64,000 nt of DNA from Spirochaetia bacterium (GTDB lineage: Bacteria > Spirochaetota > Spirochaetia > DSM-2461): positions 256,001 to 320,000 of the forward strand of contig CAXXIA010000001.1 in NCBI GenBank assembly GCA_963666985.2, in the 5' to 3' direction. Below, one piece after another: positions 27,001 to 30,000 of this stretch. Every line of letters starts with the position of its first letter. Positions within the stretch are counted from its first letter, which is position 1. Made by a program: the position numbers.

Positions 27001-30000
27001 GAAGGCCTTTCATCCGGATCGGCGTCTTATCGTGGATTTCATGCCCCATACATACAGCAGAACCGCGGCCCTTTTAGATGATTTTATATCTTGTTTCGAC
27101 GATGCCGACATTCTGGTTCTGCATCCGATTTACGCATCGGCAAGAGAAGCTTACGGCGGCGGTATTACCGGTAAGGATCTTTTCGAGAGCACAAAAAAAC
27201 GCAGAGGGGAGAAAACGACCGTGTATTGCGAAACACTGGATGAGGCCGAGGTGTTTTGTAGCTCCCGGCTGCGTTCGGGCGATCTTTTCTTAACGCTGGG
27301 AGCCGGAAACAATCGGCCTTTGGGCCGCCGTATTCTGGATGCACTGCGGCAAAAACAAGGTGGAAACTTATGATGAACAGTATGACCGGTTTCGGGAGCG
27401 CCGAAGGGGATGGAGCCGGGGTGCATTTCGCGGTGGAAATGAAGTCCCTGAATACACGATATTTGGATTTGATTATTTCTCTGCCTTCCTCCCTGACAAG
27501 TTTGGAAGGGCGCGTTCGGGAAGTTCTGCAGCGCATCTTTTCCCGCGGAAGGATTGAAGTGAATGTTCGCGCCCGTGATATCGAAGAACAGCTTTCCGTC
27601 GCGGTGGATGCCGAGGCTGCTGCGGCGTGGAAGGGCGCTTTGGAAGAACTGGCCGGAATCCTGGACGGAACTCAGGGTGTTACTCTGGATATGCTGATGA
27701 AACAGGAAGGTGTTCTCAAAGTAGAGCGGGTACGGGACACCGAAGCTTATTGGAAGGTTTTGGAGCCGCTTTTACTTTTTACCGGCGAACAGGTGAACGC
27801 GGACCGTGCGCGGGAAGGCGCGGAATTGGCTCTGGATATTGAATCGCAGCTGCAAGCAATGGAGCGCAGCCTCTCTTTCGTAGCCGATTCGGCTCCCGAG
27901 ATGAGGCGGGAAATAGAAGAATCGTTTAAATCGAGGTTTGCCGAGATTCTCGGAGACGATGTGGGCGAACAGCGCATCCTTCTGGAAACCGCGGCGTGGA
28001 TTGCCAAGACGGATATTAACGAGGAAATAGTCAGACTTGAAACGCATATCGGTGCGTTTCGAGATGAGGTGTCCTCGGAAGGTTCCAAGGGAAAGAAACT
28101 TGATTTTCTTGCTCAGGAAATGGGACGGGAGATTAATACGATAGGCTCCAAGAGTCCCAGAGCTGATATCAGCCGGGAAGTCGTGGCCATGAAAGATGCC
28201 TTGGAAAAGGTGAGGGAGCAGCTCCGTAATGTCGAATAATCTCAAAACACGCCGCAGCGGCGCTGACGGGATACGCATCGCCATTTCCGGCAAGAGCGGA
28301 TGCGGGAATACCACGGTGAGCCGTATGCTGGCCGAACGTCTGGGCCTTAATTTCGTGAATTATACCTTCCGCAGCATTGCCGAGGAGGATGGAATCCCCT
28401 TTGAGGATGTATGCCGTCGGGCCGAGATGTCCGATGATGATGATTTGAGGGTGGATCGGGTTCAGGTGGAATTGGCACGCAGGGAGCCCTGTGTTCTGGG
28501 ATCACGATTGGCCGTCTGGATGCTGAAAGAGGCCGATTTGAAGGTTTTTCTTTCGGGTTCTCTTGAAAACCGGTCCGCTCGTATTACCAATCGGGAGGGC
28601 GGCTCCCATGAAGATCAGCTGGCCGCCACGAAAGCGCGGGACAAACGGGATCACGACAGATACGAAAGACTCTATGAAATCGATAATGATGATTTTTCAC
28701 TGGTTGATTTGGTGGTGAATACCGACAGGCTGGACGCCCAGCAGGTAACGGCAATCATCGAGGCGGCGGCACGAAGCGTGATGGAGAAAACGGACGGCGG
28801 CTGATTTCTCAGGCTAACGTATGAGCGTCCATATTCCGCTATTTCATCAATCCCGATCGGCGGCGTTGAAAACGATGATCAGTCGGCCAATTCCCATCCG
28901 CGGGCGGCCGCACGGTAGAGATCGCCGGAGGTTATCCTTCCTTCGGGTGTCGGGCCCAAGGACTGAATGCGCATCCCTGAATTTAAAGATCGGTCCGATG
29001 GATTCGGCGGATACATTTGGGCGAAGATAATGCCGCTGATGTAGTCGAAATGAACATATTTGACAAGTCCGTCCTCGTCCACCGATACGGCCATTCCGAT
29101 ATGGGTGAGTTCGTCGTCCGCGACTCCGTTCCCGTTCTTATCATAAGAGTTGTCCCAGAAGAGAATATCGCCGGGAGCCGGTTCCTCGGGGCGATAAAGG
29201 AGTTCTTCGTCTTCCATACATTGATAGATTCTGGCGACTCCGTTCCCGGTGTAGCGCGGATAACAGGACTGGAGGTCGATACCGGCGCGCCAGTAGAGGG
29301 CCGATATAACACCGCTGCAGTCCATTTTGAATTTTTTTCCGTTGTTTGAGACATTCGAACGTCCTTCGGCCCAATGAGCCGCGTCAATCAGTGCCTCTTG
29401 GGTTGATGTTATGCCGAGGGCTTTTTCCGCGCGTTTATCGGAGGATTCGGAGGATTCCTGATACGTGGCGCAGGAAGATATGATCATTAAGAAAGCCGCG
29501 GCGGCGAGAAGGGCCTTGTTCGCTTTCTTCGACCGTTCATTCATATTGAAACAGTAGCGCCTGAATCATCCGATCGCAATATAATGGAACATAATAATGG
29601 GACATGATTATTTCGAGAGAAGAATCCTTGATGCTTTAAGATTCGCCGCGCCGGAAATTCTTCAGACGCGCCTTTCCTCCATGGCGGATCGGGATTTGGC
29701 CGTTGCCCTGGATGTTTTGGTTCCGGAAGACAGAGCTGCCGTTCTTTCCCGGCTGCCGGCGGCGAAGGCTGCTCGCGTCGGAGAGGAGCGGGACTATATG
29801 CAACGTCTATTCGTAAGCGATTCTCATCGTCGGATTATGGCCGAACGGCTGGCCGATGTGATGGAAGGTAAAGGGTCGAGAAGGGGCGGAACGTGGATTG
29901 CTCCCGGCGAAGGGCGGGGATCGTAAGATTCTCCCGGTATCGTCACGAGCTCTCGCGGAGTTCCGGTTGAAATCCATATATATGACCGCTGCCGCGGATG

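Follow-up and report, generated by a model that had tools for sequence, protein, structure and literature searches.

The step from GMP to GDP is obligatory on the way to GTP. The gene of guanylate kinase (Gmk) lies next to rpoZ in 18,302 of 23,517 bacterial genomes, as given in the available passages of one survey (PMC9973325). For archaea, the accessible part of PMC4177761 treats the GMP kinase reaction as known and its gene as not known, and AK6 is proposed for the role. As the genome-wide survey's note on this DNA had quoted, passages describing a Borrelia metabolic model place BB_0819 under CMP kinase and give the dGMP kinase reaction to Adk (PMC10734484). A network study, in its available portion, lists gmk in Borrelia without literature support (PMC10370097), and promiscuity of Adk has been suggested for Parcubacteria (excerpt of PMC4508563).

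Genetic data touch both canonical cmk and the COG1102/TIGR02173 family, to which the kinase described here belongs (hereafter cmk2). According to the passages at hand of PMC3603445, PyrG allows E. coli, Salmonella and Yersinia to do without cmk, and for B. subtilis and S. pneumoniae the gene is reported to be essential; the latter observation counts against a GMP kinase reading of cmk2. The COG1102 gene of Sulfolobus islandicus lies in a ribosomal operon and is listed, in the part available of PMC6249222, as essential and with no proven function; its essentiality may be polar, given that operon. The transposon data for B. burgdorferi, as excerpted from PMC3485029, show BB128 and BB819 undisrupted and BB0818 hit, with one out of six genes hit in the category, and do not discriminate between readings. 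The available text of PMC8305020, PMC12628685 and PMC1079889 holds no information on the substrate of the cmk2 family. Within the open literature, to which our search was confined (subscription journals and bioRxiv supplements lay outside its scope), we found no GMP kinase proposal or assay and no CMP kinase assay for this family.

Results

The window, i.e. the whole stretch of 64,000 nucleotides that was analysed, comes from a Spirochaetia genome that is 93% complete. Three of its genes, murC, yicC and cmk2, follow one another on the plus strand with an overlap at each junction. The stop of murC (25808..27373; UDP-N-acetylmuramate--L-alanine ligase, TIGR01082 403.8 bits for a cut-off of 335.1) overlaps the start of yicC (27370..28239), a gene of the yicC/yloC endoribonuclease family (TIGR00255 189.3 bits, cut-off 167.5; PF03755, PF08340) that forms the left marker of the gmk slot; the order murC-yicC is conserved in most Spirochaetia cmk2 loci. 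The third gene, cmk2 (28229..28804), shares 11 bases with the end of yicC and encodes a putative GMP kinase of 191 amino acids. With 129.7 bits on TIGR02173 for a cut-off of 102.1, it is indeed the TIGR02173 kinase that had been reported directly behind yicC. The next gene (28879..29544, minus strand) codes for an NlpC/P60-like lipoprotein (weak PF00877) and lies outside the unit. Since this gene takes the following position and rpoZ is found at C1:1126061, rpoZ-miaA has left the locus here, as previously noted. A scan for promoters and terminators at the locus gave nothing above chance.

The genome had been described as devoid of Gmk and as keeping a canonical Cmk elsewhere, and both statements were borne out: PF00625 gave no match, a six-frame search with a locally built Gmk profile detected no Gmk (best match E 2e-4, over the P-loop only) and Cmk was located at C1:890046. 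Besides Cmk, the genome carries Adk, one PPK2 and two distant PF13189 paralogues, and AK6 was not found in it. PPK2 and the Lys-less PF13189 paralogues were ruled out as GMP kinases, as they are missing from two small genomes (G048 and G141).

The distribution of the two genes in spirochaetes is complementary. Among 151 Spirochaetia genomes of at least 90% completeness, TIGR02173 was above its cut-off in 150, Gmk was present in none and canonical Cmk was retained in 143, which agrees with the class-wide pattern claimed before. The single genome without cmk2 (G129) looks like an assembly gap, because yicC and Cmk are also missing there. In a sample of 201 genomes of the phylum, Gmk was found in 168, cmk2 in 31 (one match each), both in none and neither in two; thus 199 of 201 contain exactly one of them. 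The two genomes devoid of both, G151 (93% complete) and G277, are fragmented assemblies, and G151 counts against the GMP kinase reading. The mirror image that the survey's note had drawn for the other spirochaete classes (Gmk without TIGR02173) therefore stands for the 168 Gmk genomes and for the strict lack of co-occurrence, but it has an exception: the 31 cmk2 genomes comprise 28 Spirochaetia and three members of a family of another class (f63), which have cmk2 and no Gmk. These three single-contig genomes all retain Cmk (3/3 versus 0/3 for Gmk) and lack yicC; their cmk2, in which the P-loop lysine is the normal one, forms a clade of its own (support 0.994). With its cmk2 in a separate clade, Cmk kept and Gmk absent, f63 represents a second, independent event. 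It is a second spirochaete family that lost Gmk, with an unrelated cmk2 subfamily, and this case is new.

Besides excluding each other, the two genes share a genomic slot. We compared the 30 best-scoring cmk2 loci with the 30 best-scoring gmk loci, neither set being a random draw. As stated earlier, yicC lies directly upstream of cmk2 in 29 of its 30 best-scoring loci and rpoZ follows downstream, rpoZ-miaA being directly adjacent in 24 of the 30. The yicC-gmk-rpoZ order that the survey's note gave for other bacteria could now be documented in other classes of the same phylum: among the best 30 gmk loci of these classes, 25 have rpoZ behind gmk and 14 have yicC in front of it, either adjacent or separated by remA; nine show the full yicC-(remA)-gmk-rpoZ-miaA order. 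Moreover, cmk2 stays where yicC or rpoZ leave (loci L064 and L073, and this window). The simplest history is an in situ displacement of gmk by cmk2 between yicC and rpoZ-miaA.

A similar exchange was found in archaea. Two loci obtained from a profile scan with the three-sequence f63 alignment (four loci returned) served as centres of archaeal samples, and both come from groups of small genomes in which archaeal genes occur (thermosome, histone, type III RuBisCO, L34e). The samples were requested at 85% completeness; their assemblies are incomplete and their kin not independent. In the phylum of the first centre (G336; 132 genomes), cmk2 (E<=1e-15) was found in 101 genomes, true Gmk (E<1e-38) in 17 and canonical Cmk in none; three of the 17 Gmk proteins were checked and scored 199-215 bits on TIGR03263. 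All 17 Gmk genomes fall among the 31 without cmk2, and none of the 101 cmk2 genomes has a true Gmk. Since none of the 132 genomes has Cmk, it is Gmk and not Cmk that took the place of cmk2 in this phylum. The best weak TIGR02173 matches in the 17 Gmk genomes are AK6-type proteins in 14 cases, Adk in one, an unrelated protein in one and a bare P-loop in one (G410). Of the other 14 genomes without a Gmk or cmk2 match, three carry a divergent but clear cmk2 and another three a protein resembling cmk2.

Here again the exchange involves a shared slot. In all 17 Gmk genomes of the G336 phylum, gmk lies between the thermosome gene and ileS, and four Gmk-less relatives carry cmk2 in this position, with both flanks (G413, G425) or one flank (G419, G422) in place; in G417, a contig ends within the slot. 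Three of these slot copies are inverted and alike, and that of G425 belongs to another subfamily. All four score 72-90 bits, below the TIGR02173 cut-off, with TIGR02173 still as top family. A weakly rooted tree built from the flanking genes, without G410 (too short), scatters the cmk2-slot genomes among the Gmk genomes (support 100 for G425 with G423 and 97 for G419 with G407). These scattered positions indicate that cmk2 has replaced gmk at least twice in this slot.

In the phylum of the second centre (G337; 221 genomes), cmk2 (E<=1e-18) was found in 175 genomes and Gmk-like proteins in 18. On TIGR03263, ten of the latter score 117-236 bits and eight 51-91; this split at 117 bits was set after the scores were known, and only two of the 18 pass the curated cut-off. 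Of the ten genomes whose Gmk is good (at least 117 bits), nine have no cmk2; these nine fall in four separate Gmk clades, and their weak TIGR02173 matches are AK6 or Adk. The tenth, G636, combines an intact-looking Gmk with a full cmk2, and seven of the eight genomes with a divergent Gmk-like protein also keep cmk2; both observations count against the GMP kinase reading. Taking all 18 Gmk-like genomes together, cmk2 is present in eight, compared with 167 of the remaining 203. Fisher tests of the Gmk/cmk2 exclusion were computed and given no weight because related genomes are not independent. Overall, the exclusion is seen again outside Spirochaetia, in independent lineages, with exchanges running both ways and once more at a shared slot.

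The f63-type subfamily provides counter-examples. Its members are sporadic and mobile: throughout a set of 80 metagenome loci, yicC, remA, rpoZ and gmk are all absent from the neighbourhood, and named copies occur in Bacteroides ovatus and other Bacteroidota as well as on plasmids of Parabacteroides, where cmk2 sits beside hpt, and of Rhodococcus. We did not find cmk2 in the phage collection. The B. ovatus, Parabacteroides and Rhodococcus hosts probably keep Gmk alongside this accessory cmk2, and the exclusion is for that reason strong and not absolute.

The predicted model of cmk2 (pLDDT 92.7) is closest to bacterial-type Cmk among solved folds (7L4A, Z 19.4, rmsd 3.1, 173 aligned residues; 2H92, Z 18.4), with two unassigned PF13189 structures also among the closest. 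E. coli Gmk (1S96) appears only at rank 50 (Z 10.4, rmsd 4.8, 151 aligned), at the level of the shared P-loop core, and this proximity to Cmk with Gmk far lower (Z 19.4 versus 10.4) counts against the GMP kinase reading. By sequence, the solved structures include no close relative, the best matches being Cmk at E 1e-11 or weaker. The P-loop GKSGCGNTT (residues 21-29; 28289..28315, plus strand) has Asn27 (28307-28309) at the position of the Walker A lysine, and this residue aligned with the Cmk lysine in three MAFFT modes. Of 42 class sequences, 41 carry Asn here and one carries Ser; the missing lysine also counts against the GMP kinase reading. Among the P-loops matched across the family, 64 have Asn, 25 Lys and 20 Thr, with Ala and others also common; such frequent replacement argues against a dead enzyme.

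The base pocket differs from that of Cmk. In the available passages of PMC3603445, the cytosine contacts of Cmk are Ser36, Tyr40, Arg110 and Asp132, and the other CDP contacts are Arg41, Arg131, Asp185 and Arg188. E. coli numbering (1KDO) was transferred through the genome's own Cmk, and residues were mapped with MAFFT because hhalign shifted the start of the helix and the GR motif by one column. The phosphate and ribose ligands of Cmk (R41, R131, R181, D185 and R188) correspond, in three MAFFT modes, to R48, R93, R137, D141 and R144 of cmk2, in which the NMP-phosphate and lid arginines are all invariant. The Ser36 site falls in a two-residue deletion. In Ser92-Arg93-Leu94 (28502..28510, plus strand), the phosphate-binding Arg131 is kept and the cytosine-binding Asp132 becomes Leu, a column that is Asp in 21 of 21 Cmk and Leu or Ile in 28 of 28 cmk2. 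The invariant acidic pair Asp72-x3-Asp76 (28442..28456, plus strand) lies on the helix that carries Arg110 in Cmk and comprises the proposed guanine readers; all 42 class sequences have both residues, and in the other subfamily sets they are conserved at 88-100%. The Arg110 column itself is gapped in MAFFT, so that Asp72 is the next residue in register via an ungapped helix and not an aligned column. As judged from these alignments, the pocket is remodelled, the cytosine-reading residues of Cmk being gone and invariant aspartates standing instead. Asp72 and Asp76 may read guanine N1-H/N2-H2, uracil being compatible as well. Because a donor (Arg110) is replaced by acceptors, a guanine edge would fit better than cytosine N3.

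Phylogenetically, cmk2 is nested in the TIGR02173 family, apart from Cmk (FastTree, 202 sequences, 174 columns, rooted on six Cmk; the tree omits 102 of 120 f63-type homologues and 15 of the 30 loci of the class). A clade that holds a Micrarchaeota protein is the sister group (0.908) of the Asn-P-loop clade and shares with it the CGN and NYTF motifs and the Ser36-site deletion.

Discussion

The survey's note had put forward cmk2 as the candidate non-orthologous GMP kinase of Spirochaetia, and the shared slot, the recurrent two-way exclusion with Gmk and the pocket residues all support this proposal. From the Gmk exchanges, the shared slots and the pocket, we consider it likely that cmk2 is a GMP kinase that arose by non-orthologous displacement, and it is probably the enzyme that turns GMP into GDP in Treponema- and Borrelia-type spirochaetes. 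It would act as a Cmk-fold nucleoside monophosphate kinase catalysing ATP + (d)GMP -> ADP + (d)GDP, both substrate and donor being predicted, and may act on CMP in addition. In this scenario, the ancestor of Spirochaetia would have acquired cmk2 from an archaeal source, the closest named relative being Micrarchaeota; the direction of transfer is deduced from nesting among archaeal-type, mostly unnamed sequences. The acquired gene would then have displaced gmk in situ, with canonical Cmk continuing to serve CMP. R48, R93, R118, R122, R137 and R144 may compensate for the missing P-loop lysine.

The suggestion that the family does the same job in Archaea is supported as well, by the loss of cmk2 that tracks the gain of Gmk and not of Cmk. 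The cmk2 family is a candidate guanylate kinase of archaea, where it very probably supplies this activity, either by itself or in addition to that on CMP. For the domain as a whole, we lean with moderate confidence towards COG1102 being the guanylate kinase and not a cytidylate kinase, a Cmk-fold enzyme whose DxxxD reads guanine. In this whole-domain reading, the family would form a second class of GMP kinase that is often Lys-less and that archaea and bacteria have exchanged with Gmk many times, most archaea having no dedicated CMP kinase.

The annotation itself offers the main alternative, namely that cmk2 is a (d)CMP kinase, that GDP comes from a relaxed Adk, Cmk or other enzyme, and that the slot reflects a chance insertion upon loss of gmk. 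TIGR02173 and Pfam carry that name, the closest folds are Cmk with R188, D185 and R181 kept, and canonical Cmk is missing from archaea (0 of 4 controls and 0 of 132 genomes of the G336 phylum); moreover, the excerpted Borrelia model and archaeal study give dGMP kinase to Adk (PMC10734484) and propose AK6 for archaea (PMC4177761), respectively. Yet 143 of 151 class genomes retain a Cmk whose cytosine residues are intact, archaeal cmk2 was lost upon gain of Gmk and not of Cmk, and gmk and cmk2 alternate in two unrelated genomic slots. As for the other suppliers, AK6 is absent from this genome and PPK2 is missing in four of five genomes tested; AK6 does not track the need for a GMP kinase, since archaea with an acquired Gmk retain it and this genome lacks it. 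We therefore regard this alternative as unlikely.

The loss of the P-loop lysine raises the question of whether the spirochaete protein is a catalytically weak or dead enzyme that serves as a nucleotide-binding or scaffold partner of YicC or of the omega subunit. The near-fixed Asn (41 of 42 class sequences), the 11-base overlap with yicC, which suggests coupled translation, and the visibly decayed P-loops of some archaeal copies (L110) would fit this idea. It is nevertheless very improbable in view of the invariant NMP-phosphate and lid arginines, of Thr, Asn or Ala in place of Lys in many family members, of the retention of cmk2 when yicC or rpoZ leave, and of the failure to find any other conserved GMP kinase candidate. 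Just as little credit goes to another substrate (IMP or a modified nucleotide) or to a ribosome-linked role like that of Fap7/AK6: Fap7 structures appear among the Foldseek matches and an L34e-cmk2-L14e operon exists in L090 and L110, but the exclusion with Gmk in four groups would be left unexplained, archaea have a separate AK6, and many archaeal cmk2 genes lie outside the ribosomal operon. The displacement of Gmk by a cmk2 acting on GMP is accordingly the reading that we retain.

If it is true, one single-copy, near-universal family would close the GMP kinase gaps of archaea and Borrelia, the annotation of thousands of genes would be corrected and metabolic models of Borrelia and Treponema repaired. 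It would also define an essential spirochaete enzyme whose fold class differs from that of human guanylate kinase, and a Lys-less P-loop kinase that would be a mechanistic oddity.

Comparison with known systems

By score, cmk2 is a member of TIGR02173 (cyt_kin_arch; COG1102, arCOG01037, PF13189; cmk-2 or BB0819 in Borrelia), with which it shares DxxxD, RL, the lid arginines and RY..Y.ID. Relative to this family, the spirochaete clade is distinguished by the CGN P-loop, NYTF and the loss of two residues where Cmk has Ser36, and the substrate proposed here is GMP, whereas the family is annotated for CMP. With Gmk (PF00625, TIGR03263, COG0194), cmk2 would have the reaction in common, and it has the yicC-X-rpoZ-miaA slot and a complementary distribution, but no sequence match and an apparently different NMP-binding domain. 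Cmk (TIGR00017) is the closest solved fold (hhalign probability 99.1%); however, cmk2 reaches only 32.8 of the 135.55 bits on TIGR00017, has no equivalent of the NMP-domain insert of ~40 residues and does not keep S36, R110, D132 or the Walker A K18. AK6/Fap7 (PRK03839) is, like the cmk2 family, archaeal and of the P-loop NMP kinase fold. The family itself was thus already known, under a name that is probably wrong; what is added here are the f63 event, the two archaeal exchange cases and the pocket changes.

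Additional kinase genes and neighbouring reading frames

In the genome of the window (G000), two more PF13189 proteins of the 3HDT/3FDI type are encoded at C1:673370-674209 and C2:1002161-1002823, their P-loops are devoid of the lysine, and both are absent from genomes G048 and G141. The canonical Cmk of many class genomes (e.g. at the G030, G005 and G139 loci) lies within open frames of about 800 aa, which probably result from its fusion with the downstream gene, presumably RpsA. The window also contains a lone FliG_C/MgtE_N-like ORF of 109 aa (29597-29926), as well as a DusA gene (23377-24414) and, at most 11 kb apart from it, a second Dus-like ORF recognised by eye only (34558-35568).

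Unusual arrangements of cmk2 and gmk

MurC and cmk2 are covered by a single ORF, with no yicC in between, at L072:4262-6391 (genome G060), in protein P0015 and in genome G242. These ORFs measure 710 and 512 aa, the open frame of G242 reaching 529 aa, and they may represent true fusions or frameshifts. Two cmk2 domains occur in tandem in six proteins of 355-394 aa (P0024, P0025, P0026, P0031, P0051 and P0152), where the P-loop lysine is usually present in one domain and absent from the other. At locus L157 of the spirochaete G151, a hisF-like gene is followed by an rpoZ-like gene and miaA, whereas gmk and cmk2 are both missing there; the genome is 93% complete and may genuinely lack the two kinases.

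Among archaea, the cmk2 located between L34e and L14e displays a decayed P-loop in G345 (L110:1501-2013) and likewise at loci L113, L116 and L117, and genomes with this decayed copy harbour a second cmk2 at another site. Archaeon G420 carries a tandem pair of gmk genes inside the thermosome-ileS slot (L207:4113-5380). The small-genome groups to which loci L083 and L084 belong carry archaeal markers, and the titles of these two records (Chloroflexi and Methanosarcinales) look wrong.

Finally, a cmk2 of the spirochaete f63 type, bearing a C-terminal extension, is found on a Parabacteroides plasmid (NZ_CP143950.1; L301:5998-9622), followed by genes for a radical SAM protein, a dehydrogenase and hpt. 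GDP-mannose and GDP-fucose genes lie near this cluster, which is accessory and purine-flavoured.
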